The notes under the pieces were generated by a model. It ran no database searches, was not told the origin of the DNA, and was given only the letters and a program-made list of their open reading frames with translations. Made by a program: the position numbers and the translations under genes. From an uncultured Candidatus Saccharibacteria bacterium (lineage in GTDB: Bacteria > Patescibacteriota > Minisyncoccia > UBA6257 > 2-01-FULL-56-20), in the NCBI GenBank assembly GCA_964484655.1, contig CAZAFA010000001.1, forward strand, positions 97,518-161,517: a stretch of 64,000 bases of DNA. The letters run 5' to 3'. Shown one piece after another: positions 6,866 through 38,507 of this stretch (position 1 is its first letter; each line of letters starts with the position of its first letter).

Positions 6866-6882
6866 TGCGGCGCGATGCATTT

Positions 6883-6910
6883 CCAGGGGAGCTCCCGCTG
6901 GCTCCCCTGG
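6883..6910 (+). terminator. GC-rich hairpin after pepA, no U-tract
   Basis: CCAGGGGAGC-tcccgctg-GCTCCCCTGG (10-bp stem) 18 nt after the pepA stop. Confidence 0.4.
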
Positions 6911-6992
6911 AAAGCTGACCCCTGCGAATGGACCCCGGTCGATTCAAGGGACGCAGCTTATACAAAGGAATAATGAGGAGAAGGAGAACGCC

Positions 6993-7199
6993 ATGAAGAA
7001 GAAGGAACTGCCAGGAGAGAAGCAGCGCCGCCGTGCCACGACGCGGCAGCATTCGGACGAGCACGCCGACCGCGGCGAGACCTACGAGGGCGCGACCGAG
7101 CGCGTGGACAGCATAGACGGCACCGGTGCCAGGAGCTCCGGCGGATCGAGCTTCGACGGGTCGGACAGCGGCTACGTCGGCGCGATGCTCGTCGGATGA
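6993..7199 (+). CDS. Small hydrophilic hypothetical protein (68 aa)
   Basis: Strong RBS AGGAGAAGGAGA 5 nt upstream of the ATG and coding-like third-position GC. Followed immediately by a terminator. Confidence 0.45.
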   Translation: MKKKELPGEKQRRRATTRQHSDEHADRGETYEGATERVDSIDGTGARSSGGSSFDGSDSGYVGAMLVG

Positions 7200-7203
7200 G
7201 AAG

Positions 7204-7230
7204 GAAGCAGCTACGGCTGCTTCTTCGTTG
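7204..7230 (+). terminator. Rho-independent terminator
   Basis: GAAGCAGC-tacg-GCTGCTTC followed by TTCTTCGTT, 5 nt after the stop. Confidence 0.55.
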
Positions 7231-7244
7231 TGCACACGAGCGGT

Positions 7245-7272
7245 TTGACTACGAGGGAAAGCGCGCGATAAT
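7245..7272 (+). promoter_or_regulatory. Orphan sigma70-like promoter TTGACT-16-GATAAT
   Basis: Near-consensus -35 and -10 with a 16-nt spacer and no obvious protein gene downstream before a terminator at ~7386. Confidence 0.45.
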
Positions 7273-7278
7273 GAGCGC

Positions 7279-7416
7279 ATCATGCGACGCATGCCCGCCT
7301 CCCGCTTCCAGGCCATCTGCTCGACGGCCATCTTCGCGACCCTTCGTCGCGGGCAGGGGACACGGTAGGAAGCGCGCTACTGAAACCCCCTGCCCGAACG
7401 GCAGGGGGTTTTCGTT
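7279..7416 (+). ncRNA. Candidate small RNA or small-ORF transcript (~135 nt) bounded by promoter and terminator
   Basis: Predicted TSS ~7279. The terminator is CCCCCTGCC-cgaac-GGCAGGGGG plus TTTTCGTT at 7386-7416. The only ORFs inside are 28-33 codons or read through the terminator. Confidence 0.3.
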
Positions 7417-7507
7417 CGCGGATTGGGATCGTGCCTCGCACTCCCCAGTCCGGGAAACCGGCTGGAGGACGCAGTTCTTTTATTTCAACTCGTAGGAGCA
7501 CGCACAT

Positions 7508-7723
7508 ATGACCGAAGCAACGAAGATTGGCGAGGAGCTATCGCCCATTACGAACGACCTGGACATCGATCCGTTCGGATCGACGTTCGACGCCCTGCAT
7601 GACTCGTCGGCAGGCAACCGGCGGTTCCGCCTCGGCGGAGCCCCGCCCAAGCGCGACCTGGACTCTCTCGCGGACGAGGAGCCACCAGAGAAGCGTTATA
7701 CCGGCAGCGATAGCTGGCGATGA
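7508..7723 (+). CDS. Small acidic hypothetical protein (71 aa)
   Basis: RBS TAGGAG 8 nt upstream, coding-like codon bias, terminator after the stop. Confidence 0.4.
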   Translation: MTEATKIGEELSPITNDLDIDPFGSTFDALHDSSAGNRRFRLGGAPPKRDLDSLADEEPPEKRYTGSDSWR

Positions 7724-7749
7724 GCGGATCCCCGCTCCCAATACAAATC

Positions 7750-7770
7750 AGGCACCTCAGTGCCTTTTTT
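7750..7770 (+). terminator. Rho-independent terminator
   Basis: AGGCAC-ctca-GTGCCT followed by TTTTTT. Confidence 0.6.
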
Positions 7771-7784
7771 GTTACGCGCGGTGC

Positions 7785-7793
7785 TGTTAGGAT
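7785..7793 (+). promoter_or_regulatory. Extended -10 (TGtTAGGAT) 9 nt upstream of the ychF ATG; leaderless-type promoter
   Basis: TG-n-TAGGAT at 7785-7793 and ATG at 7803. The same TGcTAGGAT sits 6 nt before the hpf ATG. Confidence 0.4.
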
Positions 7794-7802
7794 GGCCCGG
7801 CA

Positions 7803-8798
7803 ATGAAGCTATCTATCGGCATCGTCGGCCTCCCGAACGTGGGCAAGTCCACGCTCTTCAAGGCGCTCACCAAACAGGACATCGTCGTCGCGAACTACCC
7901 CTTCGCCACCATCGACCCGAACGTCGGCATCGTGAGCGTTCCCGACGAGCGCCTGGACGCGCTCGCGGCGATGAGCCAGTCCAGGAAGAAGGTTCCCGCC
8001 ATCGTCGAGTTCTACGACATCGCGGGCCTCGTGAAGGGCGCGTCCGCAGGCGAGGGTCTCGGGAACCAGTTCCTGACCCACATCCGCGAGACGGACGCGG
8101 TCGCTTTCGTGCTGCGCGTCTTCCAGGACGACGGCATCCACCACGTGGAGGGCACCGTGGACCCGGTACGCGATCTCGAGGTCATCGAGACCGAGCTCAT
8201 GCTCAAGGATCTCGAGACGGTCACGAAGCGTCACGCCTCGCTCGAGAAGGAGGCGAAGGCAGGCCTGCCCGGCGCGCGCGAGCAGCTCGCCGCCCTCGAG
8301 AAGGCCAAGGAGGCGCTCGAGGCGGGGCAGTGGCTGACGGAGTTCTCCGGCGAGGAGGCGGTGCGCGGACTGCAGCTGCTCTCCGCGAAGCCGCGCCTGT
8401 TCGTGATCAACGGCACCGAGGACGAGATCCCCGACGCGCTGCGCGACGCGGTCGCCGCGCGCGGCGGCGAGATGGTCGTCCTCGACCTCGCGGGCGAGCC
8501 CGACCTCGCGCCCCTGATCCGGAACGCGTACCGCATGCTCGGCCTCGCGAGCTTCTTCACCACCGGCGAGGACGAGACGCGCGCGTGGACGATCCGCGCG
8601 GGAGCGCTCGCGCCCGAGGCGGCCGGCGCGATCCATTCCGACTTCCAGGCGAAGTTCATCCGCGCCGAGGTCGTCTCCGCGAAGGACCTCCTCGAGCAGG
8701 GGAGCTGGAGCAAGGCGAAGGGCAAGGGCCTCGTCCGCCTCGAGGGCAAGGAGTACGCGGTCCAGGACGGGGACGTCCTCGTCGTCCGGCACGGGTAG
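7803..8798 (+). CDS. ychF: Redox-regulated ATPase YchF (Obg-family GTPase/ATPase with TGS domain)
   Basis: G1 motif GIVGLPNVGKSTLF, NxxE-type specificity region and a C-terminal TGS domain (...GKEYAVQDGDVLVVRHG). Confidence 0.85.
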   Translation: MKLSIGIVGLPNVGKSTLFKALTKQDIVVANYPFATIDPNVGIVSVPDERLDALAAMSQSRKKVPAIVEFYDIAGLVKGASAGEGLGNQFLTHIRETDAVAFVLRVFQDDGIHHVEGTVDPVRDLEVIETELMLKDLETVTKRHASLEKEAKAGLPGAREQLAALEKAKEALEAGQWLTEFSGEEAVRGLQLLSAKPRLFVINGTEDEIPDALRDAVAARGGEMVVLDLAGEPDLAPLIRNAYRMLGLASFFTTGEDETRAWTIRAGALAPEAAGAIHSDFQAKFIRAEVVSAKDLLEQGSWSKAKGKGLVRLEGKEYAVQDGDVLVVRHG

Positions 8799-8827
8799 TT
8801 GACTTTCCCGTCAAACTGCGCTATAGT
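8799..8827 (+). promoter_or_regulatory. Strong sigma70-like promoter TTGACT-17-TATAGT directly after the ychF stop
   Basis: Near-consensus boxes. The -35 context TTGACTTTCCC is also found at 33150. No protein gene follows. Confidence 0.5.
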
Positions 8828-8833
8828 CCCATC

Positions 8834-8921
8834 CGGATGAGTGAAAGTGCATGTTATTAATGTGTCACTAGCTCCTCTGCTTGGCACCACGGCCCCCGCA
8901 AGGGGGCCGTGGTGTTCCTTT
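8834..8921 (+). ncRNA. Candidate small RNA (~90 nt) ending in a 13-bp GC hairpin with a GCAA loop
   Basis: Predicted TSS ~8834. The terminator-like hairpin CACCACGGCCCCC-gcaa-GGGGGCCGTGGTG is followed by TTCCTTT. The only ORF inside is 7 codons. Confidence 0.3.
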
Positions 8922-8942
8922 ACCCTCCCTTGAAACCGGTTC

Positions 8943-9093
8943 TGATATACTCGTGGAAGGTCTTTCGCAGGAGCGTTGCGAGCGGGTGTGATGCGAGCAC
9001 TCATCTACCACAAGCAGACGGAGGTCCACCCGTCACACTCGCTCGGAACGCTGCTGAAGGAGAACGCGCCGTCATGATGACGGCGCGTTCTCC
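8943..9093 (+). ncRNA. Second candidate structured RNA downstream of an extended -10 (TGaTATACT)
   Basis: Extended -10 at 8943-8951. A 13-bp long-range helix (8979-8991 with 9033-9045, one G.U pair) is followed by a perfect 35-nt palindrome GGAGAACGCGCCGTCATGATGACGGCGCGTTCTCC at 9059-9093. No plausible ORF. Confidence 0.3.
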
Positions 9094-9228
9094 GTTCCGA
9101 TGCGCGATGCGCGCGCGTGTATGACGCGATCATGCGCATCGCATGATCATGAAAAAAAGTTTTCGCGCATGTCGCGATGCAGTTATCCACACGTTCGCGC
9201 GCATGCCGTTTACTACAATTAGATACAA

Positions 9229-9243
9229 GAACGTGCAACGTTC
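9229..9243 (+). promoter_or_regulatory. Operator-like palindrome GAACGT-gca-ACGTTC upstream of the histone-like gene
   Basis: Perfect 6-bp inverted repeat with a 3-bp spacer, 55 nt upstream of the ATG at 9298. The region also carries repeated GCGCATG motifs and a 9-bp-stem hairpin at 9128-9148. Confidence 0.3.
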
Positions 9244-9297
9244 TCGTCGGATGCAATCCATAGTCGACAACCGACGTCACACACCACACTTGCTTCC

Positions 9298-9483
9298 ATG
9301 GCCAAGAAAGCAGCACGCAAGTCCACGAAGAAGACCGTGAAGCGGGCTTCGAAGAAGACTGTGAAGAAGGCGGCGAAGAAGACCGTGAAGAAGGCGGCGA
9401 AGAAGACCACGAAGAAGGCTTCCCGCAAGACCGCTAAGAAGTCCACGAAGAAGGCTTCGAAGAAGACGGCCCGCCGTCGCTAA
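9298..9483 (+). CDS. Histone H1-like Lys/Ala-rich DNA-binding protein (tandem KKTVKKAAK repeats)
   Basis: 61-aa protein made of KK(T/A)VKKA(A/S)KK repeats, encoded by tandem ~30-nt nucleotide repeats. It resembles bacterial H1-like/HupB C-terminal tails. Confidence 0.6.
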   Translation: MAKKAARKSTKKTVKRASKKTVKKAAKKTVKKAAKKTTKKASRKTAKKSTKKASKKTARRR

Positions 9484-9503
9484 GTACGACATTACCCACT
9501 TAC

Positions 9504-9531
9504 GCAAAGCCCCCGATTCCGGGGGCTTTGC
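9504..9531 (+). terminator. GC-rich terminator hairpin
   Basis: GCAAAGCCCCCG-attc-CGGGGGCTTTGC, a 12-bp stem 20 nt after the stop. No U-tract. Confidence 0.5.
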
Positions 9532-9570
9532 GCGTCTGCGGCCGGCCGACCGACCTGCTAGGATAGGGGT

Positions 9571-9903
9571 ATGAAGACCTCAATCCACTACGAGAACGTC
9601 GATCGCTCGCCGGCCCTGGAGGACCTCATACAGGGGAAGATGGCATCCGTGGCGACCATCCTCGCGGCCTACGACGCGGACGACGCCGTAGCCTGCAACG
9701 TGACGGTTGAGCGCGCCACCGGCCACCACCACGGCGACGTGTACGCCGTCCGCGCGACCGTCGAGGTGAACGGTACGGTCCTGACCGCCCATGCGACCGG
9801 CGACGACCCGTACAAGCTCGCCGACGAGGTGCGCGACACGCTCCACGGCGCCGTCCAGCGCTTCAAGGAGCAGGACGTTGCGCGCCGCCACGCCGAGGGC
9901 TAA
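9571..9903 (+). CDS. hpf: Ribosome hibernation promoting factor / RaiA family (short form)
   Basis: 110 aa. N-terminal ...IHYENVDRSPALEDLIQGKM and C-terminal DDPYKLADEVRDTLHGAVQRFKE match the HPF/YfiA beta-alpha-beta fold family. TGcTAGGAT sits 6 nt upstream of the ATG. Confidence 0.65.
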   Translation: MKTSIHYENVDRSPALEDLIQGKMASVATILAAYDADDAVACNVTVERATGHHHGDVYAVRATVEVNGTVLTAHATGDDPYKLADEVRDTLHGAVQRFKEQDVARRHAEG

Positions 9904-9926
9904 GCTCACGCGGCACATCTCCTCAC

Positions 9927-12506
9927 GTGATACGGATCATCCGCAATATTTTCGACCGCAAGGCGCTCGCCGGCTACCGGAAGCGCCTGGTGCCGATCGC
10001 AGACCTCGAGCCCGAGCTCCAGGAGCTCGCCGACGCGGCGATCACCGAGCGCAGCCTCGCGCTCCGCGACAAGCTCCGGTCCGGGGCCCTGTCCGTCGAC
10101 GAGGCCATGCCGGAAGCGTTCGCGCTCGCCCGCGAGGCGGCCCGGCGCACGCTCGGGCAGCGCCCGTACGACGTCCAGCTCATCGGCGGCATCGTGCTCT
10201 ATGAAGGAGGGATCGCCGAGATGGGAACCGGAGAGGGAAAGACCCTCGCGGGCGTGGCCCCGGCCTACCTGCATGCCCTGACCGGGCGCGGCGTCCACAT
10301 GGTCACGGTCAACGAGTACCTGGCCCGCCGCGACGCCGTCTGGATGGGCCAGATCTACCGCCTGCTGGGCCTCTCGGTCGCGTGCCTCGTCCCCGAGGCG
10401 GCCTTCGTCTACGACGCGGACTTCAAGGGCGAGGAGAACGCCGAAGAGGACCGCGACGAGACGGGCGGCTTCAAGGTGCACCAGGAGTTCCTGCGCCCGG
10501 TCTCGCGCCGCGAGGCCTACCTCGCCGACGTGACCTACGGCACGAACCACGAGTTCGGCTTCGACCATCTCCGGGACAACCTCCAGTACCGCGCCGAGAT
10601 GCAGGTCCAGCGCCCGCACTACTTCGCGATCATCGACGAGGCTGACAGCATCCTCATCGACGAGGCGCGCACCCCGATGATCATCTCCGCGCCGGACCGG
10701 GAGAGCAGCGAGATGTATCGCACCTTCGCGAGCATCGCGCGCCGCCTGCAGCGCGACACGCACTACGAGGTCGACGAGAAGTACAAGGCGGTCACCATGA
10801 TGCCGGAGGGCATCGAGGAGGTGGAGCGCATCCTCGGCATCGCGAACCTCTACGCGCCGGAGAACGTCCGCCTCGTCCGCTACCTCGACGAGGCGCTCAA
10901 GGCGGAGTCCCTCTTCATCAAGGATCGCGAGTACGTCGTCCGCGAGGGCGAGATCCTCATCGTGGACGAGTTCACGGGCCGCATCCTCGCCGGGCGCCGC
11001 TACAGCGGGGGACTGCACCAGGCCATCGAGGCCAAGGAGGGCGTGAAGGTGAAGGAGGAGAGCCGCACGTACGCGAAGATCTCCGTCCAGAACTACTTCC
11101 GCCTCTACGAGCGGATCTCCGGCATGACCGGCACCGCCGAGACCTCCGCCGAGGAATTCCACAAGGTGTACGGCCTGCCCGTCGTCTCCGTGCCGCCGCA
11201 CCGCCCGGTGGTGCGCCAGGACCTGCCGGACCTCGTCTACAAGAGCCGCGAGATCAAGTACCGCGCCATCGCGGCGGACGTGAAGGAGCGGCACGAGAAG
11301 GGCCAGCCGGTCCTCATCGGCACGACCTCGATCGAGAAGAACGAGGAGCTCTCCGCGTATCTCGATCGCGCCGGCATCCCGCACAGCCTCCTCAACGCCA
11401 AGAACAACGAGAAGGAGGGTGCGACGATCGCGCAGGCCGGCCGCAAGGGCGCCGTCACCGTCGCCACGAACATGGCCGGCCGCGGCGTCGACATCATCCT
11501 GGGCGGCAACCCGTCCACGAAGGAGGAGGGGGACGAGGTCCGCGCGCTCGGCGGCCTGCATGTGATCGGCACGGAGCGGCACGACTCGCGCCGCGTGGAC
11601 AACCAGCTCCGCGGCCGCGCCGGACGCCAGGGCGACCCGGGATCCTCGCAGTTCTTCCTCTCCCTCGACGACGACCTCATGCGCATCTTCGGCGGGGACC
11701 GCATCAAGGGCCTCATGGAGCGGTTCAACCTCCCCGAGGACGAGCCGATCCAGATGGCCATGGTCACGCGCGCCATCGCGGAGGCCCAGTCGAAGGTCGA
11801 GGGGTACCACTTCGACAGCCGCAAGCGCGTCATGGAGTACGACGACGTGCTCAACAAGCAGCGCGCGGCCGTCTACGCGAAGCGCCAGCAGCTGGTCGAC
11901 TCGCGCACCGGCGAGGACGTCGCGCGCGAGGTCGGCGAGGCGGCCCGCGCCTTCCTCGACCGGGTCCTCGGCAAGGACGGCGTGGTGCCGGACGGCAGCG
12001 AGCCGCTTGCCGAGCTCCAGAAGCTCTTCGCCGAGGCGGGCATCACCGACGCGGAGCATCCATGGCCGGAAGGGCACGTCGACGTGGCGCACCTGCAGGA
12101 CCTCATCGACCACCGCAGCGCCCACGCCGCGACCGATCCGCAGACCCTCGGCCGCCTGCTCGGCATCCTCGACCAGCTCTGGATGACCCACCTCGAGGAT
12201 CTCGAGGACCTGGATCAGAACGTGCGCCTGCGCGGCTACGCCCAGCGCGACCCGCTCGTCGAGTTCCGGCGCGAGGCTTCCGAGTACTACGAGCGCATGT
12301 GGAGCAACTACGAGGAGTGGGTCTTCATGAACGCCATCCGCCTCGCGCAGCCCGGCGATCCCGCCGCTGCGTTCGAGCTCCCGCAGCAGAACGCGCCGAA
12401 GGCCGCCGAGCTCGACGACCCGAAGTTCCAGAACGTCGGCCGCAACGATCCCTGTCCGTGCGGCAGCGGCAAGAAGTTCAAGAAGTGCCATGGCGCAGGA
12501 CTCTAG
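9927..12506 (+). CDS. secA: Preprotein translocase ATPase SecA
   Basis: 859 aa with DEAD-like motor motifs, Walker A MGTGEGKTL, and a C-terminal zinc finger CPCGSGKKFKKCHG. GTG start. Confidence 0.95.
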   Translation: MIRIIRNIFDRKALAGYRKRLVPIADLEPELQELADAAITERSLALRDKLRSGALSVDEAMPEAFALAREAARRTLGQRPYDVQLIGGIVLYEGGIAEMGTGEGKTLAGVAPAYLHALTGRGVHMVTVNEYLARRDAVWMGQIYRLLGLSVACLVPEAAFVYDADFKGEENAEEDRDETGGFKVHQEFLRPVSRREAYLADVTYGTNHEFGFDHLRDNLQYRAEMQVQRPHYFAIIDEADSILIDEARTPMIISAPDRESSEMYRTFASIARRLQRDTHYEVDEKYKAVTMMPEGIEEVERILGIANLYAPENVRLVRYLDEALKAESLFIKDREYVVREGEILIVDEFTGRILAGRRYSGGLHQAIEAKEGVKVKEESRTYAKISVQNYFRLYERISGMTGTAETSAEEFHKVYGLPVVSVPPHRPVVRQDLPDLVYKSREIKYRAIAADVKERHEKGQPVLIGTTSIEKNEELSAYLDRAGIPHSLLNAKNNEKEGATIAQAGRKGAVTVATNMAGRGVDIILGGNPSTKEEGDEVRALGGLHVIGTERHDSRRVDNQLRGRAGRQGDPGSSQFFLSLDDDLMRIFGGDRIKGLMERFNLPEDEPIQMAMVTRAIAEAQSKVEGYHFDSRKRVMEYDDVLNKQRAAVYAKRQQLVDSRTGEDVAREVGEAARAFLDRVLGKDGVVPDGSEPLAELQKLFAEAGITDAEHPWPEGHVDVAHLQDLIDHRSAHAATDPQTLGRLLGILDQLWMTHLEDLEDLDQNVRLRGYAQRDPLVEFRREASEYYERMWSNYEEWVFMNAIRLAQPGDPAAAFELPQQNAPKAAELDDPKFQNVGRNDPCPCGSGKKFKKCHGAGL

Positions 12507-23770: not shown

Positions 23771-24826
23771 ATGGCGAAGGACTACTACCAGATCCTGGGC
23801 GTTTCGCGCGACGCTTCCCCGGAGGAGATCAAGAAGGCGTACCGCAAGGCCGCGCACCAGCACCACCCTGACAAGCAGGGCGGCGACGAGGCGCGCTTCA
23901 AGGAGGTCAACGAGGCGTACCAGGTGCTCGGGAACGCCGAGAAGCGCGCCCGCTACGACCGTACCGGCTCCGCGGATGGCTTCCCGGGCGGCGGAGCTGG
24001 ATTCGGCGGCTTCGGCGCGGAGGGCTTCGAGGTGAACTTCGAGGACCTCGGGGACCTGTTCTCGAGCGTCTTCTCCGGCGGCTTCGGCGGGGGATCGCCG
24101 CGCCGCCGCGATCGCGGCGACGATCTTCACGTGGAGCTCCGCATCTCGCTCGAGGAAGCCTTCTCCGGCGGCGACCACGGCTTCCGCGTCCCGGCGCAGG
24201 TGAAGTGCGATACGTGCGCGGGCTCGGGCGCCGCGGAGGGCAGCAAGCTGGTCACCTGCGCGACCTGCCACGGCAAGGGGCAGGTGGTGCAGACGCGCCG
24301 CGTGCTCTTCGGGCAGTTTCAGCAGGCGATCCCGTGTCCGGACTGCGAGGGAAGCGGGCAGAAGCCGGAGAAGCCGTGCCCGGCATGCCACGGAGCAGGA
24401 CGCGTGAAGGGGACGCGTGACGTGAAGGTCCACATCGACCCGGGCGTGCAGGACGGGCAGGTCATTGCTGTTCCCGACATGGGCGACGCGGGCCAGCGCG
24501 GCCTGCCGGCCGGATCGCTGGGCGTCCTGGTGCGTATCGCGCGGCACAAGACCTTCGTCCGCGAGGGCGACGAGCTCCTCGCCGACGTGCCGGTCTCGCC
24601 GCTCGAGCTCCTCGCGCACGAGCCGATCCAGGTGCCCGTCATCGACGGCGGCACGGAGCCGGTCTCGATCCCGGCGGGCACGGACCTGTCCCAGCTGTTC
24701 CGCGTGAAGGGGAAGGGGATGCCGCGTTTCCGCGGCAGGGGACGCGGGGACCTGCTCGTGCGGTTCCACGTCATCACGACCAAGAGGCCTGGGAAGCGGG
24801 AGGTAGAGAAGCTGTTCGAGTCCTAG
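23771..24826 (+). CDS. dnaJ: Co-chaperone DnaJ
   Basis: J domain with HPD, a G/F-rich region and four CxxCxGxG zinc-finger repeats. Confidence 0.9.
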
Positions 24827-24890
24827 TCTGCCAAGTTCCTCGCGGAAGTAGGCAAGGAAATCAGCACGAAGTTGTGGGCTGTAGTGATAC

Positions 24891-24917
24891 ATAAAGACCG
24901 TGCATTACGGCACGGTC
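24891..24917 (-). terminator. Rho-independent terminator (minus-strand orientation) at the left edge of the low-GC block
   Basis: GACCGTGC-attacg-GCACGGTC followed on the minus strand by TTTAT. It sits just downstream of the minus-strand ORF ending at 24944. Confidence 0.5.
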
Positions 24918-24943
24918 ATCATCGGGATTACGTACCCCGGTCT

Positions 24944-25324
24944 TTACCCGGAAGTTTCCGATAAAGGCTTGGAGGGGAGATAGGCAGGGTTAATCTGGAC
25001 GAAGCCCGTCTTCCCGGTACCAATCATCAAAAAATCTGTGATAGCTCCCTTGGTTTGTTTCATAACCTTGCTTTGAACATCTTCAGCGGCACGAACGTAT
25101 GTGCGTGCACTAGCCTCAGAATGATCGTCAGCTGCATCGTCAGAAAGCTCTGAATAATAAAAGCGTTCGTCAGGATTGCGTAGCATCCGCTCTATGAGAT
25201 AAAAGCCCTCGGTTTTTGCTTGCCGCAAGTTAAGACTGATCGGGAATGAGCCTATATGTAGGGTGCCTGTATCTGAATCTAGGCTGAGCACGCGCTCGTC
25301 CTTATCTTCGGGTTTAGTAAGCCA
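24944..25324 (-). pseudogene. C-terminal part of a frameshifted hypothetical gene; continues the reading frame of 25314..25820
   Basis: This frame is protein-like only downstream of ~25325 (...VWLTKPEDKDERVLSLDSDTGTLHIGSF...MLRNPDERFYYSELSDD...). Upstream it is Cys/Ser/Arg-rich junk. The in-phase partner ORF stops at 25314, so a 1-nt frameshift near 25315-25330 would fuse them into a ~300-aa protein. Low GC. Confidence 0.35.
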
Positions 25325-25820
25325 GACCCTGCACGCCTCGATTACGAGGGGGGTGCGTGAAACGCAGCCAATTCTTGTAGCGATCCTTGCGGAGCAAGAA
25401 GTGGTTATCAGGCATCGGCTTATCGTCAATTGCAAATTCAGTGAGGAGCATCGCAAAGCGCGTCCCAGTTTCAGGCCTACTGCCATCCTCAATTTTCCTG
25501 AGCAAAGTTTCGACTGCACCGTATACCTGCCATAGCTCGTCATAGACAGGCCAGAAGTGAAGCTCGTGAAGGGTAGTGAGCATAGCTTCGCGGTCTAGAT
25601 CCGGGGCAGTCAGAACCTTTTTCTTAATCTCTTGCCACTTCGCAAACTCTTCGTACAGAAAATGGCCTTCGAGTCCGTGGGTGTTAGCCACGGTTTTTAC
25701 ATAGCCGTGAATCTCCCTGAAGAGTTGCAAATCCGGCTCCATAGTCATCATGAGTTGGTAGCGGCGTTCGAGGTCGGCAATAACCTGATCTGCCGTAGGG
25801 GGAGTCTCTGATTGGGCCAT
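25314..25820 (-). CDS. Hypothetical protein (N-terminal part of the putative frameshifted gene), low-GC block
   Basis: ORF with a protein-like C-terminus (...HFLLRKDRYKNWLRFTHPPRNRGVQGLAY). The start is set at MAQSETPP (25820). Upstream in-frame ATGs up to 25970 would overlap the divergent gene. No known domain. Confidence 0.4.
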   Translation of the reverse strand: MAQSETPPTADQVIADLERRYQLMMTMEPDLQLFREIHGYVKTVANTHGLEGHFLYEEFAKWQEIKKKVLTAPDLDREAMLTTLHELHFWPVYDELWQVYGAVETLLRKIEDGSRPETGTRFAMLLTEFAIDDKPMPDNHFLLRKDRYKNWLRFTHPPRNRGVQGLAY

Positions 25821-25929
25821 AAATCTGGTGGCTTTCAAGGTGCCTATTACTGCACTAAACTGCAAGCTATAGCAGTGGCTATCCAGAAGCCCTTCCATTA
25901 GGCTTTTGGCAAAATCCCATAGAACACCC

Positions 25930-26889
25930 ATGCGCCTAGGAGAAATCAAAAAGATACTAGACAGAGTCACTGATGGCTCGGTTATTGCCGTAGCGCATGA
26001 ACCCCTTTATGGAGATCAAGCTCAGCGTGTTGGCAACTACGGGGATGTAATCGCCGCTCTCGAGGTGCTATCTGAGCAGGACTGGAGCGAGCTCGATAAG
26101 GCAACCCTGAATAGCCTGCTGGAAAAACATCCTTCTACAGAATCCGCCATTCTCACCCAGGAAGAGTTTAGTCAGCTAAATGCGCTGGTGAGTGCAGTAA
26201 ATCAAAAGCTGCCCGTTTTCTATTCCATACTTAAAAATATGGTTGACTCTCAGGAAGAGCAGACCATTAACATTAAGCTACCAGCGGGTATTGATTCGAT
26301 TGCTAAGCTAACGAAATTCAATAACAACATCGAGAATGTACTGAAGCGTTTCAATGTTGACGGTCAGTTTGATTTTAAACAGTTCGATAAAGGATCCGAT
26401 TGGTATGTCATCGTTGCTACCAGTTATCTTTCTTACAGGTTCTTACTTGCGGGCCTGGCAACGGCGCAGAAATACCTAGAAATGAGAAAGGCCAGTTTCG
26501 AATCAAAAACTGCTGAACTAGAATACCGGGCTGCAGTTGATAAACCTGAAGTCGAACCAAAGGAAGTAAAAGCCTTCGTGGAACGCAAGCTTAAACTTTT
26601 CGTGGAGAACGAAGTCCAAGAAGCAATACAGCAACTTGGTACAGGATCAAATACTGAAGGTGAGCTTCGCGTGAAGTTGATACAGGCAACCACAGCTCTT
26701 ATTAAGGAGCTTGATGATGGAGCGGAATTCCACCTATCACTTAATCCTCCAGCTTATGCAGAGGAAAATGGTGGTCAGCTGAGGATTGACTACTCGAAAA
26801 TGCGGCCCCTTATCGAAAAGAAGGAAGAGGACAGCAAGCAACTGAACGCTCCCGCAGAGGCAGATTCCGTGGAAGATCAAACCGAATAA
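25930..26889 (+). CDS. Hypothetical protein (320 aa, acidic, coiled-coil-rich, one hydrophobic segment), low-GC block
   Basis: ATG at 25930; the track's 25906 is a TTG. No recognisable family. One central hydrophobic segment WYVIVATSYLSYRFLLAGLATA. AT-rich codon usage unlike the host genes. Confidence 0.5.
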   Translation: MRLGEIKKILDRVTDGSVIAVAHEPLYGDQAQRVGNYGDVIAALEVLSEQDWSELDKATLNSLLEKHPSTESAILTQEEFSQLNALVSAVNQKLPVFYSILKNMVDSQEEQTINIKLPAGIDSIAKLTKFNNNIENVLKRFNVDGQFDFKQFDKGSDWYVIVATSYLSYRFLLAGLATAQKYLEMRKASFESKTAELEYRAAVDKPEVEPKEVKAFVERKLKLFVENEVQEAIQQLGTGSNTEGELRVKLIQATTALIKELDDGAEFHLSLNPPAYAEENGGQLRIDYSKMRPLIEKKEEDSKQLNAPAEADSVEDQTE

Positions 26890-26903
26890 GGGTTGTTAAA
26901 TTA

Positions 26904-27371
26904 ATGGAAATCATTTTTCTCAAAGATCGGGATTGGCGGGTAAATGATGGTCGCCTTAGTCTGATTAGAGAATTTAAGCCCTTTCTAGGAAGTAAGGTAG
27001 AAAATGGGATGGCTATCACGGTAGATTCTTCTATTCCTTATGCCTCGGTAGAATTTGTAAGTCATAACCTTCCTAACCAGGCAACGGGTTTTATCACTCA
27101 CAAAGAGGACTTTATAAATCTATGGAAGGTTTTTAATGACAGGGGGATAGCCTCGAATGAAGAAGTAATTTTTTACTGGTCTACAAAGCATTACAAATCA
27201 AAAATAGTAGGGTTTCTTTCAAAAATGCTTCCCAAAATGGCTATTTACGTAGTGCCAAGCGGCACATATCAAACTGTCAGTGATATGGATTTACCGAAAG
27301 TAGATACTGCAAATGTCATGTATTACGCACTAGCGGCGAAGGATGCTTGGATCCCGGAAATAATGACTTAA
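26904..27371 (+). CDS. Hypothetical protein (155 aa), low-GC block
   Basis: Follows the previous gene after 14 nt. No recognisable domain. Low GC. Confidence 0.45.
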   Translation: MEIIFLKDRDWRVNDGRLSLIREFKPFLGSKVENGMAITVDSSIPYASVEFVSHNLPNQATGFITHKEDFINLWKVFNDRGIASNEEVIFYWSTKHYKSKIVGFLSKMLPKMAIYVVPSGTYQTVSDMDLPKVDTANVMYYALAAKDAWIPEIMT

Positions 27372-27390
27372 ATTCGGCCATAACAATATT

Positions 27391-27418
27391 ATCGTTCGAA
27401 CATCGTCCACGGCCCCCA
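27391..27418 (+). repeat. 28-bp direct repeat, copy 1
   Basis: ATCGTTCGAACATCGTCCACGGCCCCCA, identical at 27/28 positions to 27632-27659. Contains the palindrome GTTCGAAC. Confidence 0.6.
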
Positions 27419-27631
27419 ATTAGTATGATTTAGATATGAAGAGACACTGGCTTGAGCATATTGAAGGATCATTCTCGCTATCGCCCTACCTGCGGGTTTG
27501 ATAGCCTTATTACTTGATCCGTCAGCGACAAATGGCCTCCTATTTCTTATCCTCGCAGTAGCGTGGAAGCACGCAAATGGCGCCCTATAAAGGCGCGGCT
27601 ATTTGGTATCGGTTAAATTTTCAGACACAAA

Positions 27632-27659
27632 ATCGTTCGAACATCGTCCACGACCCCCA
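27632..27659 (+). repeat. 28-bp direct repeat, copy 2
   Basis: ATCGTTCGAACATCGTCCACGACCCCCA, 241 bp downstream of copy 1 in a noncoding stretch. Confidence 0.6.
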
Positions 27660-27672
27660 GTGGATATTTGAA

Positions 27673-27700
27673 AAGGCACCTGTTAAGTAACAAGTGCCTT
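27673..27700 (-). terminator. Rho-independent terminator for the minus-strand small membrane protein gene
   Basis: The stem AAGGCAC...GTGCCTT has an internal TGTTA/TAACA extension. On the minus strand it is followed by TTTTCAAATAT. Confidence 0.5.
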
Positions 27701-27724
27701 CACCTCATCAAGAGTCTGGTCAAT

Positions 27725-27955
27725 CTAATTTTCGTCGAGATAACCGCGCAGCTTCTCTACGGTTAAAGAATCGCCTCGGATAAATTCCCTCAAGCTGATT
27801 CCACAAAATCCAATAGTTAAGCTCGAGATGCCGATGATTCCAAAAAAGATGACACTGACCCAAACGCCGCCGTGAATGGTCTGCGGGTGCGTGGACATCT
27901 CATACCAACCCATAACTGTTGCAATAGCGATTAACACTAGCCCTAATAGTTTCAT
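27725..27955 (-). CDS. Small two-TM membrane protein (76 aa), low-GC block
   Basis: Start chosen at MKLLGLVLIAIATVMGW... because GGAGGT lies 8 nt upstream. The track ORF extends to 28114 but has no RBS there. Confidence 0.5.
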   Translation of the reverse strand: MKLLGLVLIAIATVMGWYEMSTHPQTIHGGVWVSVIFFGIIGISSLTIGFCGISLREFIRGDSLTVEKLRGYLDEN

Positions 27956-28072
27956 TGTGAATACCTCCGCTGAACATACTAAGTATATTGACGAATTATT
28001 CAATAGTACGCATAAGGGTTCCGATAACGTCCCACTGCGCCAGCAGCCATTTTTTAGCGATACAATTCGGTC

Positions 28073-28657
28073 ATGAAGAGCCTCAAGGACTTTGATCCGA
28101 ACGAGGTGGCACATCTCGATCTAGAGATGTGGAAGGCATACTACAGCCATAGGTTCGTCCGCCTGTTTTTCTTACTTGTTAGACTCCTGCGTAAGCAATT
28201 CGGGCTGGGCCTGTTTACTGCCATCCGTGCCGCATCTTTCGCCGCCGCGGCAGCAACCGATTTCCGTCGTAACAAAGGGAAGGAAGACAAGCAGCGTGTG
28301 TATGAGAAAGTTCTACGCTTCACGCAAATTGTTTCTGCTAACGCGCCAGAAGAGTTCAATGCAGAACAAGCTGCTACAACCGAAGTTGAGTGGTGGTTTG
28401 TCGATCGTTACCCCGAGAACTTCCTAGAAGGGGAACGTGAGAGAGGGCTAGCACGTGCAATGAGTGCTATCTACGGAGTAAACCCGGAGGCCTTAGCGGA
28501 TTATGCCAAGTATCGTGCTCAGGCCATGGTGCTCCAGGATGAAGCTGAAGAGACAGGCAAGGAGGCAGATTGGGAGAGGATGGGGATCCTGCTCAGGGAT
28601 TCCTATCGGGCATTATTCACCGCTCTTCACGAGGAGGATCGTTCGAAGTTCGTCTAG
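28073..28657 (+). CDS. Hypothetical protein (194 aa), intermediate GC
   Basis: No recognisable domain. An N-terminal amphipathic/hydrophobic segment and a C-terminal acidic region. The gene is followed by a T-tract. Confidence 0.45.
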   Translation: MKSLKDFDPNEVAHLDLEMWKAYYSHRFVRLFFLLVRLLRKQFGLGLFTAIRAASFAAAAATDFRRNKGKEDKQRVYEKVLRFTQIVSANAPEEFNAEQAATTEVEWWFVDRYPENFLEGERERGLARAMSAIYGVNPEALADYAKYRAQAMVLQDEAEETGKEADWERMGILLRDSYRALFTALHEEDRSKFV

Positions 28658-28710
28658 CTTGGCCAGCGCGGCGAGCGTTCAGGCTTTTTTCTTGATGCTA
28701 TTCTAGAGAC

Positions 28711-29091
28711 ATGACCACCATCTTCCTCGCCCAGCTCTGGGGGCCGATCTTACTCGCTGTCGCGCTCGGGATCTTCTTCAGCGCCTCGTACTACCGCCGC
28801 ATCTACCGCGAGCTCGAGAAGGACTCGCTCGCCGTCCTTCTCTTCGGCATGACCGCCACCGCGGCCGGCATCGCGCACGTCCTGTTCCATAACTCCTGGG
28901 CTTCTACGCCGGAGATTGTCGTATCCCTCCTCGGCTGGGGACTCCTCCTCAAGGGCATGCTCTTCATCATCGCACCCGGGTTCGTGGACCGCGCCGGGGA
29001 CCGATGGGCGAAGCTCAAGCTAATCCCGTTCGCAGGAGCTCTCACGCTACTGGTCGGCTTGTATCTGACCTGGTTCGCGTACCTCGCGTAG
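28711..29091 (+). CDS. Hypothetical membrane protein (126 aa, 4 TM), host-like high GC
   Basis: Four predicted TM helices. Codon usage returns to the high-GC pattern of the flanking chromosome. Confidence 0.5.
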   Translation: MTTIFLAQLWGPILLAVALGIFFSASYYRRIYRELEKDSLAVLLFGMTATAAGIAHVLFHNSWASTPEIVVSLLGWGLLLKGMLFIIAPGFVDRAGDRWAKLKLIPFAGALTLLVGLYLTWFAYLA

Positions 29092-29155
29092 AGAAGCAGT
29101 CGGCAGAGGTATCTGGTCACAATGGCAACGCACCCGTACGGGTGCGTTGTGCTAG

Positions 29156-29569
29156 CTAGTCAGACTCGAGCGGCTCCCAGTAGATCGACTCCACGACCTC
29201 TGCGGGAGCGTCGGGAGGCCACCACTCCTTGCGTATCCGTGCGACGACCGCGTCGCGGTCGGTCTCGGTGCCGAAGAGCAGGGCGAACGCCCGCTGGCGG
29301 TCGCGCGTGACCCAGGGATTCCTGCTGCGGGTTATCCATGCCTCGACCGAGTTCTCCTCCAGGAAGGCGGCGACCTCGTGCGGCGTGTGCTCGCCGCTGA
29401 GCTTGTGCCAGGCGCGATGCTCGCGTTGCGGCTTGTACAGCAGGTTGCCTCCCTCCATGTCTGGATTATGGAAGTAGCCGGCCTCGAGGAGGCGCGACTG
29501 GGGCAGGGGATGATGCGCGGTGATGCGCATGAGGTCCCGCTCCTGGCGCCTCTTCTTCTTGCGTCTCAT
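29156..29569 (-). CDS. HNH endonuclease-domain protein (137 aa)
   Basis: Starts at MRRKKKRRQERDL with GAGGT 6 nt upstream. It carries HH-x14-N-x8-N-x8-H-x3-H (HHPLPQ...FHNPD...GGNLL...HRAWH), a typical HNH core. The track ORF is longer but its extension is Arg-rich junk. Confidence 0.6.
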   Translation of the reverse strand: MRRKKKRRQERDLMRITAHHPLPQSRLLEAGYFHNPDMEGGNLLYKPQREHRAWHKLSGEHTPHEVAAFLEENSVEAWITRSRNPWVTRDRQRAFALLFGTETDRDAVVARIRKEWWPPDAPAEVVESIYWEPLESD

Positions 29570-29745
29570 TGCGCGACCTCGTTCCCGATGCCGAGCAGCC
29601 GCTTCGCGGACATCCAGAACCCGCCGGCTATGGCGTGGACGACGAACGCGATCAGCCAGAACGGCAGGACGACGTGCGACGTCCAAGGAGTCTCCGTCTC
29701 GCTCGCGAGCGCTCTCTCCATGCAGGTGTTACATAAGATGCTCAT
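29566..29745 (-). CDS. Small hypothetical protein (59 aa) with CxxC and a hydrophobic helix, translationally coupled to the HNH gene
   Basis: ATG at 29745 with AAGAGGAGG 6 nt upstream. Its TGA overlaps the HNH ATG (ATGA). At 59 aa it is below the ORF-track cutoff. A TTGACA-17-TAAAAC promoter lies on the minus strand at 29791-29819. Confidence 0.4.
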   Translation of the reverse strand: MSILCNTCMERALASETETPWTSHVVLPFWLIAFVVHAIAGGFWMSAKRLLGIGNEVAQ

Positions 29746-29831
29746 ACAGCACCTCCTCTTGATAGTATTTTGGAATCGTTGCCGAGCGCAGTTTTATCTA
29801 TTATCCTCCTAATTGTCAATATCCGGTGCCT

Positions 29832-30260
29832 ATGACCATCTTCGAGCGCGCCAAGAAGTTCGGCCTCCCGGCGGGCGAGTACGCGGTCTTCGGCAGCGCG
29901 CTGCTCGGCGCCTGGGGGATCCGCCCCGCGAAGGATCTCGACCTGATCGTCAAGCCCGATCTCTTCGCGCGGCTGCGCGCTGACGGGTGGCGGGAGTGGG
30001 TGACGCAGATGGGGCACCCGATCCTCACGCGCGACGACGCGGACGCGACGACGTACCAGGAGCCCGATCCGCGCATCGGCTACAACCCGGACCGCGCGCG
30101 GCTCATCAAGGAGGCGGTCCTGATCGAGGGCGTGCCGTTCGTGCGCGTCGAGGAGGTGATCGCGTGCAAGCGCGACTACGACCGTCCGAAGGACCGCGAC
30201 GACATCGCCGCGATCGCGCGCTATCTCGCGGAGCGGGGAGGGGATGCGATCTACGGCTAG
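29832..30260 (+). CDS. Minimal nucleotidyltransferase (MNT)-like protein
   Basis: YAVFGSALLGAWGIRPAKDLDLIV matches the GS-x9-13-DhD nucleotidyltransferase core. 143 aa; an alternative GTG start is at 29826. Confidence 0.5.
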   Translation: MTIFERAKKFGLPAGEYAVFGSALLGAWGIRPAKDLDLIVKPDLFARLRADGWREWVTQMGHPILTRDDADATTYQEPDPRIGYNPDRARLIKEAVLIEGVPFVRVEEVIACKRDYDRPKDRDDIAAIARYLAERGGDAIYG

Positions 30261-30917: not shown

Positions 30918-30990
30918 GCCCCTATAGCTCAGTTGGTAGAGCAGCTCCCTTTTAAGGAGACGGTCCTAGGTTCGAGCCCTAGTGGGGGCA
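30918..30990 (+). tRNA. tRNA-Lys (anticodon UUU), CCA not encoded
   Basis: Cloverleaf: acceptor GCCCCTA/TGGGGGC, D-arm GCTC-AGTTGGTA-GAGC, anticodon loop CTTTTAA (TTT), T-arm CTAGG-TTCGAGC-CCTAG, discriminator A. 73 nt. Confidence 0.9.
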
Positions 30991-38498: not shown

Positions 38499-38507
38499 TG
38501 ATATACT
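38499..38507 (+). promoter_or_regulatory. Extended -10 TGaTATACT 8 nt upstream of the ATG (leaderless-type); conserved context CCGG..CTGATATACT.GCCTCGTATG
   Basis: Identical TGATATACT at 8943. The TATACT-[g/t]GCCTCGT-ATG arrangement is also found at 46957-46973. Confidence 0.4.

Follow-up and report, generated by a model that had tools for sequence, protein, structure and literature searches.

Small RNAs (sRNAs) that are embedded in the 3' untranslated region (UTR) of a gene and carry a promoter of their own are exemplified by DapZ and MicL in enterobacteria, and the pairs AgvB/AsxR with GcvB/FnrS, and SroC with GcvB, are examples of RNAs that act as anti-sRNAs or sponges of other sRNAs. To our knowledge an Hfq-type context is not known in Patescibacteria, and no described regulatory RNAs turned up in the literature that was searched on the Candidate Phyla Radiation (Patescibacteria). 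Here, we report a previously undescribed, conserved and structured noncoding locus that follows the gene ychF in a stretch of 64,000 nucleotides of contig CAZAFA010000001.1 (assembly GCA_964484655.1), hereafter the window. Its best reading, on which we judge the chances to be evenly balanced, is that of two tandem sRNA genes, RNA1 and RNA2, which belong to a new, clade-restricted family and would pair with each other.

A further system to be considered is the raiA motif RNA, which is found upstream of raiA in 66% of cases and has secA among its associated genes (PMC10861870). In this RNA the 5' and 3' ends form a helix (P1), the core is made of P3a-P3b, P4, PK1 and PK2, and a conserved linker, UUAGA(C/A)GUAA, is exposed (PMC12968392). 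It is known from Bacillota and Actinomycetota, not from Patescibacteria (Rfam RF03072; PMC10861870, PMC12968392).

The gap under study measures 499 bp and separates ychF (7803-8798, + strand, with a TAG stop codon at 8796-8798) from an open reading frame (ORF) for a Lys/Ala-rich, H1-like protein of 61 amino acids (9298-9483, + strand). The GC content, ~68% in the window, falls across the gap from ~0.70 to 0.51-0.60. The preliminary description, made from the letters alone, had taken the gap as one 500-bp noncoding unit holding one or two structured small RNAs. All the features that it listed lie at the positions it gave or a few bases away. The small RNAs are favoured by promoters, terminal hairpins and a long helix that are all kept in 12 relatives with compensatory changes; the single unit is not supported, since a spacer that is not conserved makes up the distal third, and beyond it the H1-like gene has its own promoter and leader. 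The island is made of three successive modules: RNA1, RNA2 and, after that spacer, this promoter with its leader. The features of the first two are the following:

8799-8827, + strand: promoter P1, starting one base past the ychF stop, with -35 TTGACT (8799-8804), a 17-nt spacer and -10 TATAGT (8822-8827)
8835-8921, + strand: RNA1, a predicted small RNA of ~87 nt, whose ends we infer from the geometry of promoter and terminator
8834-8879, + strand: H1, the 5' hairpin of RNA1, with a base stem of CGGA.GAGU with GCUC.UCUG, an upper stem and the loop UUAUUAAUG
8872-8884, + strand: segment b of RNA1, CUCC(n)UCUGCUUGG, single-stranded or switchable, invariant in 12 genomes
8884-8922, + strand: H2, a GC-rich hairpin with the tail UUCCUUUA, putative intrinsic terminator of RNA1 and ychF
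8943-8951, + strand: promoter P2, the extended -10 TGATATACT, with TG at 8943-8944 and the hexamer at 8946-8951
8958-9097, + strand: RNA2, a predicted small RNA of ~140 nt, in which a short leader precedes the long hairpin H4 and the terminator hairpin H5
8968-9056, + strand: H4, a hairpin of 89 nt with 3 + 18 bp and a 3x3 internal loop, closing a conserved apex
8993-9034, + strand: the invariant 42-nt apex of RNA2, GCGAGCACUCAUCUAC(nn)CAAGCAGA(C/A)GGAGGUCCACCC(G/U)UC, containing a' (8998-9006) and b' (9010-9018 plus GGAG at 9020-9023)
9019-9021 with 9030-9032, + strand: a 3-bp mini-hairpin in the apex, with the loop AGGUCCAC
9059-9093, + strand: H5, a hairpin formed by a perfect 17-bp palindrome (17 + 1 + 17), putative intrinsic terminator of RNA2

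A search with the YchF protein identified as closest relatives metagenome-assembled genomes of Paceibacterota/Patescibacteria (top match JALHNY010000001.1, 81% amino-acid identity), forming a tight clade with 76-83% identity, the next matches reaching only 69% or less. The comparative set consisted of the ychF-flanking DNA of 12 distinct members of this clade (L001/L081, L082/L089, L083-L088 and L090-L093); covariation was computed on an alignment of 11 sequences, and pairwise identities are means among ten genomes. In 12 of the 12 relatives a homologue of window positions 8799 to ~9093 lies immediately 3' of the ychF stop codon (nhmmer E down to 1e-68), to which the RNA module is always fused, and the separate profiles of RNA1 and RNA2 match in all relatives with E of 1e-20 to 1e-23 and of 1e-25 to 1e-28, respectively. 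Mean pairwise identity is 55% at the third codon positions of ychF and 53% in the spacer between H2 and H4, 84% in the 5' part of RNA1, 84-86% in the strands of H4 and 96% in the 42-nt apex (8993-9034), so that the apex is far more constrained than the adjoining essential gene.

The + strand from 8833 to 9097 folds with a minimum free energy (MFE) of -135.4 kcal/mol, compared with -91.9 +/- 5.2 for 200 dinucleotide shuffles (z = -8.4), none of which reaches so low a value, and the same test in L001 gives z = -9.9. The nested structure formed by H1, H4 and the apical mini-hairpin keeps 96.3% of cells paired, a value that falls to 32-47% if the partners are displaced by 1-3 columns; both partners are changed in eight pairs, and the observed covariation is reached by none of 500 shuffles. 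Covariation among homologous regions, which the preliminary description had proposed to look for by comparing the ychF to H1-like intergenic region in relatives, is thus present. The RNA is encoded on the + strand, as invariant G.U pairs (e.g. columns 169/224) would read A.C on the opposite strand, T-runs follow the hairpins on the + strand only, and the covariance model (CM) of RNA2 scores 107-113 bits on the + strand as opposed to 41 bits on the other.

Promoter P1, the near-consensus TTGACT-17-TATAGT already seen after ychF in the preliminary description, is the sole promoter-like call in a scan of positions 8000-10000. In its extended form, TTGACTT-N16-TAnnnT, the pattern has no second match in the 64 kb, and shuffles would lead one to expect 0. 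None of the 12 relatives departs from TTGACTT, and their -10 hexamers all fit TA[T/G/C][A/T][G/A]T, with T-12, A-11 and T-7 fixed. A CAG is conserved 7-8 nt 3' of this -10, so RNA1 would start at (C)AGAUGAG. The -35 is also one half of an inverted repeat, TTGAC-N6-GTCAA (8800-8815 in the window), which occurs in most relatives, not in L001 and L091, and could be an operator overlapping P1.

Hairpin H1 is supported by the MFE folds. Of the cells in its base stem, 98.7% are paired; alignment column 47, which is either A or G, has U7 of RNA1 as its constant partner, and the loop of H1 is conserved, reading UUAUUCAUG in some relatives. It is followed by the invariant segment b, which can also be written CUCC(n)UCUGCUUGGCA, and by H2, which in the window is the perfect 13-bp stem (8885-8897 with 8902-8914) with a GCAA loop that had been described before. 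In all relatives a hairpin is kept here, with a 12-15 bp stem built from differing sequences and a stability of -19 to -34 kcal/mol. The U-rich tail that had been ascribed to it is found in most relatives, as UUUUAU or UUUAU, but is only moderately rich in U in the window (TTCCTTTA). The predicted length of RNA1 agrees with the ~90 nt expected by the preliminary description, and the 7-codon ORF that it had noted exists (ATG at 8838). Since H2 is the first terminator-like structure past ychF, RNA1 would double as the 3' UTR of this gene. Like the 3'-UTR-embedded sRNAs, RNA1 has its promoter at the end of the upstream coding region, a putative terminator in common with the mRNA and a conserved seed at its 5' extremity; unlike them, it comes from another phylum, has no sequence relation to them, and the sole candidate partner identified for it is a neighbouring RNA rather than an mRNA.

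The extended -10 of P2 had been placed twenty nucleotides past H2; the motif is indeed there, but the distance is 29 nt. TGATATACT occurs twice in the window (the other copy is at 38499), against 0.06 copies expected. The pattern TG-n-TA-n-A-n-T is invariant in 11 relatives, with a CAG conserved ~7 nt 3' of it. Both P1 and P2 vary only where a -10 tolerates it, and each has a conserved CA(G) 7-8 nt 3'. In the spacer between H2 and H4, which is variable in length (45-70 nt), the P2 motif and its CAG are the sole conserved features, and the rest changes at about the neutral rate.

The long-range helix of the preliminary description (8979-8991 with 9033-9045) proved to be the core of H4, sitting in a 33-nt inverted repeat (8968-9000 with 9024-9056). 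In the main helix, which like H2 is supported by covariation, 5 of the 18 pairs carry changes in both partners and pairing holds in 97% of cells: columns 173/220 form C-G in 6 sequences, U-A in 3 and A-U in 2, and columns 165/228 form U-A in 8 and A-U in 3. In the mini-hairpin, columns 204/217 form C-G in 8 sequences and A-U in 1, and do not pair in 2. The apex is not coding, because it carries 1-nt indels in L090 and L082 and no variation of the third-position type. The perfect 35-nt palindrome noted earlier is that of H5, which has a counterpart at a fixed position in every relative, with sequences unrelated between genomes; it is followed by U5-U7 in L082, L083, L085 and L087, and by UUUGAC or UUUUGAC in L001 and L091. 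In the window, apex and H5 are partially complementary; a terminator-antiterminator logic was considered and rejected, because the H5 sequences differ between genomes and this complementarity is not conserved.

RNA1 and RNA2 probably pair with each other, as their sequences suggest. The 5' end of RNA1, AGAUGAGUG (segment a, 8835-8843), is complementary to CACUCAUCU of the RNA2 apex (a', 8998-9006), and segment b, CUCC(n)UCUGCUUGG, to CCAAGCAGA(n)GGAG (b', 9010-9023). The pairing is possible in all genomes, in 94.9% of cells for a:a' and in 99.3% of cells for the 13 pairs of b:b', and two separate Watson-Crick runs of the observed lengths were obtained in 0-1 of 2000 shuffles of the RNA1 segment. 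As in the anti-sRNA and sponge pairs, there is conserved complementarity to a functional single strand, with an invariant target and a partner that tolerates mismatches; here, however, the genes are adjacent and co-oriented, and the predicted complementarity is bipartite (7-9 bp + 13 bp) and in crossed order.

On these grounds, the following mechanism may be proposed. RNA1 would be transcribed from a near-consensus sigma-70-type promoter and stop at H2, which would also end the ychF transcript, an arrangement like that of sRNAs embedded in a 3' UTR and driven by a promoter of their own. RNA2 would start from the extended -10 promoter and consist of a covarying hairpin displaying the invariant apex, a putative functional surface for a protein or for target RNAs, followed by a terminator hairpin of its own. 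RNA1 would be the dedicated base-pairing partner of RNA2, in the manner of an anti-sRNA or sponge. Pairing might be nucleated by the single-stranded GCUUGG between the RNA1 hairpins on the CCAAGC of the apex and be extended through UCUG and CUCC, opening the 5' stem of RNA1, whose freed 5' end, AGAUGAG, would then pair with the adjoining CUCAUCU, so that ~22 nt of the apex would be masked.

In line with what is expected of sRNA genes, conserved promoters face into the elements and the region is noncoding. Terminal hairpins are always present, with good U-tails in most relatives and weak ones in the window. That there are two transcription units, RNA1 at ~8835-8921 and RNA2 at ~8958-9097, has in our judgement slightly better than even chances; it is favoured because the second motif varies as an extended -10 should and its surroundings change at the neutral rate. 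Several observations weigh against two pairing sRNAs. Behind H2 the window has a weak U-tail (UUCCUUUA) and L093 has none, the tail of H5 is poor in the window (GUUCCG), and a promoter and terminator scan of the window called neither hairpin as a terminator; the poor tail after H2 in the high-GC members, the window included, makes termination there, and hence the existence of two separate RNAs, uncertain, and read-through possible. The helices a:a' and b:b' never covary, both sides being essentially invariant, so that covariation cannot test this pairing. Furthermore, there is a mismatch or an uncompensated change at the 3' end of a in five or more genomes, the sole variable position in b (column 47) pairs with U7 of RNA1 itself and not with RNA2, and the RNAduplex energy for the window is no better than that of shuffles (z = -0.1; from -0.1 to -3.6 across genomes). 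The segments a, b, a' and b' follow each other in crossed order, therefore both helices can be present together only if they lie next to each other in the manner of a pseudoknot, and segment b overlaps the 3' strand of the base stem of H1, which, if the pairing is real, suggests a strand-exchange switch. Finally, the family is known from only ~12 closely related genomes.

The same crossed order resembles an intramolecular pseudoknot, and the locus could instead encode one structured RNA of ~260 nt (8835-9097) with a double pseudoknot. In such a molecule H2 would be internal, TGATATACT would be coincidental or an internal promoter, and a:a' and b:b' would be tertiary helices docking the 5' domain onto the apex of H4, making the whole a functional analogue of large structured RNAs such as the raiA motif RNA. 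The weak or absent U-tail after H2 in the window and in L093 is in agreement with it, and so is the extreme conservation of an unpaired surface, which is typical of large structured RNAs. In addition, the H1-like ORF is followed by hpf (Ribosomal_S30AE, 9571-9903) and then by secA (9927-12506), and the neighbourhood of hpf and secA is the usual location of the raiA motif (PMC10861870). However, the stretch of 45-70 nt between H2 and H4 is neutral, variable in length and conserved only in a motif that varies just as an extended -10 with a start site would; most relatives have a good U-tail after H2, and the pseudoknots are without covariation support. A single RNA is thus possible but, in our view, somewhat unlikely. 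We give lower chances still to purely cis-acting elements, with H2 as the ychF terminator and H4 and H5 as a stabilizing or attenuating structure at the 3' or 5' end of the neighbouring transcripts. It is true that H2 is the first terminator-like structure after ychF, that no other terminator precedes P1, and that strong hairpins in series can stabilize an mRNA; but terminators and stabilizers keep a structure and not an invariant unpaired sequence of 42 nt, two conserved promoters face into the elements, and the downstream gene varies among relatives, with H5, where it is a canonical terminator, expected to block read-through into it.

That the locus is a diverged copy of a known housekeeping RNA, namely 6S, signal recognition particle (SRP) RNA, RNase P RNA, tmRNA or the raiA motif RNA, is very improbable, and the 6S-like or similar RNA offered in the preliminary description is not supported. 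RNA2 is loosely reminiscent of 6S or 4.5S RNA for its long hairpin with a conserved, largely unpaired apex, and contains the hexamers AAGCAG and AGGUCC, which are also present, in the opposite order, in helix 8 of bacterial SRP RNA. The pentamer AGA(C/A)G, within CAAGCAGA(C/A)GGAGG, is in common with the raiA linker UUAGA(C/A)GUAA (PMC12968392), which as a whole is absent here. Against such an origin, no Rfam model for any of these five RNAs, RF03072 included, matches the window or 8 relatives at E<=10, ARAGORN finds no tmRNA, and the family was not found in 78 other Paceibacteria ychF loci. With 6S RNA, the locus shares a mostly double-stranded structure with a conserved unpaired region, but H4 has 89 nt rather than ~180, and its 21 bp close a one-sided apical loop, whose 28 nt all lie on the 5' side, plus a 3-bp mini-hairpin; 6S RNA, by contrast, is a rod of ~150-200 nt with a closing stem, a large two-sided bubble at its centre and a terminal stem. 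It resembles the raiA motif RNA in its predicted promoter and terminator, in having hpf(raiA) and secA not far downstream, in two possible long-range pairings and in a conserved exposed strand. Here, however, no helix P1 unites the two ends, the 5' end being complementary to the H4 apex and not to the 3' end, the helices have another topology, the order of elements being a-H1-b-H2...H4(a' b')-H5, and the RNA tracks ychF, with the H1-like gene always standing before hpf, and an aldolase gene too in 5 of the 12 relatives. This aldolase gene, which fills the neighbouring slot in some relatives, and the presence of long ORF-free DNA in a compact genome might evoke the remnant of a degraded gene, a possibility that we consider negligible and that the preliminary description had named as what would refute its own: conservation is above that of the flanking essential gene, stems show compensatory changes, 1-nt indels occur in the most conserved block, and the aldolase gene, where present, follows the RNA2 terminator and is unlike the spacer of the window.

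Searches for known families and for coding capacity gave results as follows. The Rfam scan of the whole window at gathering scores had a tRNA at 30918 as its sole match and none in the gap, and scans at E<=10 of positions 8700-9400 (701 nt) and 8828-9100 (273 nt), a check of the kind suggested at the outset, and of 8 relatives returned only chance hairpins, such as those of microRNA and CRISPR-DR models, and no known family. ARAGORN detected neither tRNA nor tmRNA in the region. A hammerhead (CAGAUGAG versus the core CUGAUGA), a T-box, SRP helix 8 and the CR motifs of RNase P were looked for by eye and rejected, because the order was wrong or core motifs were missing, the CM scans being negative as well. 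The nhmmer profiles and the calibrated CM of RNA2 found nothing in the 78 further ychF loci (YchF 52-66% identical), and inspection by eye of 11 of these revealed no analogous layout of promoter and hairpins after ychF. The invariant 21-mer retrieved one contig only from the JGI metagenome collection, identical to L082 over the region, and the RNA element was not found in a scan of IMG/VR. The small ORFs of the island have no Pfam or NCBIfam match; as coding sequences, the ORFs of 30 and 33 amino acids on the + strand and that of 102 amino acids on the - strand were rejected in view of the 1-nt indels, the lack of a conserved ORF and the lack of family matches. When the window was searched for mRNA targets of the RNA2 apex or of the 5' part of RNA1, the complementary stretches did not exceed 9-10-mers, as expected by chance.

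In 5 of the 12 relatives (L001/L081, L086, L090, L091 and L092) the RNA2 terminator is followed by a gene for a Beta_elim_lyase/threonine-aldolase-like protein, dependent on pyridoxal phosphate (positions 5313-6395 in L001). In four of these five carriers it is seen separating the RNA module from the H1-like gene, and the L092 locus stops inside it; the window itself lacks this gene, and its spacer shows no similarity to it. Since the RNAs stay with ychF while the aldolase gene intervenes before the H1-like gene, the RNAs are not the leader of the latter. They belong with ychF and not with the nucleoid-protein gene, and the annotation of the locus is corrected in this sense; the regulation of that gene by these RNAs, envisaged in the preliminary description, is not supported. 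The rest of the gap comprises these features:

9098-9181, no strand assigned: a spacer not conserved in sequence or length, AT-rich in relatives, which holds the hairpin 9128-9148 and two copies of GCGCATG
9182-9191, + strand: a DnaA-box-like sequence, GTTATCCACA, with the perfect consensus TTATCCACA at 9183-9191, 22 nt upstream of the -10 of the H1-like gene
9214-9219, + strand: the putative -10 of the H1-like gene, TACAAT, conserved as TA(T/C)A(C/A)T, preceded by GTTTAC and proposed purely from its conservation
9228-9276, + strand: the leader of the H1-like mRNA, with two hairpins or inverted repeats, AGAACG-N5-CGUUCU (9228-9244) and CGUCGG/CCGACG (9245-9250 with 9271-9276)

The hairpin at 9128-9148 and the repeated GCGCATG (three copies in 9131-9205, 43 in the whole 64 kb) are present as first described, the former being specific to the window. 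GCGCATG is over-represented window-wide and beyond the gap, with these 43 copies compared to 20 +/- 4.7 expected. Judging from its conservation, the region 9182-9276 holds the promoter of the H1-like gene together with a structured leader. No other site in the 64 kb matches the DnaA box with at most one mismatch. In 10 out of 10 relatives whose sequence reaches it, the box is perfect and stands at the same place, and the locus has no second perfect one, the background rate being 9 perfect boxes in 618 kb of other loci. A replication origin at this site was rejected, because the box is single and there is no skew inversion near 9 kb; the box suggests instead a DnaA-dependent control of the nucleoid-protein gene. 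The TACAAT hexamer was not called by the promoter scan because no -35 is present. In the leader, the first repeat, which contains the operator-like palindrome GAACGT-GCA-ACGTTC (9229-9243) already pointed out in the preliminary description, is invariant save for one A-to-G change in L082, which yields a G.U pair, and the second repeat reads CGUUAAG/CUUAACG in relatives and CGUCGG/CCGACG in the window, amounting to three compensatory pairs.

The H1-like gene (window 9277-9300 and relatives) is without a Shine-Dalgarno sequence, its C/A/U-rich leader ending in a conserved (U)CACAUGG, and hpf just downstream carries a ribosome-binding site of the GGAUAGGGG type. The half-site GAACG/CGTTC recurs in the locus (8971-8979 and 9228-9244 in the window, 6484-6500 in L001): at the 5' base of the RNA2 hairpin, relatives have it as an uninterrupted palindrome, GGAACGTTC(C), in the H1-like leader it appears as AGAACG-N5-CGTTCT, and in L001 as AACGTTGCGCAACGTT beside the DnaA box. 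These half-sites may reflect a common binding protein or a coincidence. Elsewhere in the window, the ~940 nt between an M17 peptidase gene and ychF (6866-7802) contain only small ORFs without family matches, and relatives have at this place called genes of 62-113 amino acids without Pfam match. At ~24000-30000 the GC content goes down to 0.43 (26001-28000), beside the sole tRNA gene (30918-30990), and this stretch may be a horizontally acquired island.

The reach of these findings is limited to about a dozen metagenome-derived genomes of one clade. The apex contains a Shine-Dalgarno-like GGAGGU and RNA1 a CUCC, so this surface might interact with the machinery of translation or hibernation. 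That RNA1 and RNA2, as one pseudoknotted transcript or as a two-piece complex, form a compact lineage-specific RNA engaging this machinery is a speculation to which we assign a low probability; if true, it would correspond in function to the raiA motif RNA, with the hpf-secA neighbourhood in common, and be regulated by strand exchange between its two parts. The tiny genomes of Patescibacteria hold little intergenic DNA, and ~260 nt that are more conserved than the neighbouring gene for an essential GTPase are therefore likely to be important to these bacteria. The RNA pair offers a concrete and testable case of a new RNA family, with an invariant surface of 42 nt and a built-in complementary partner.

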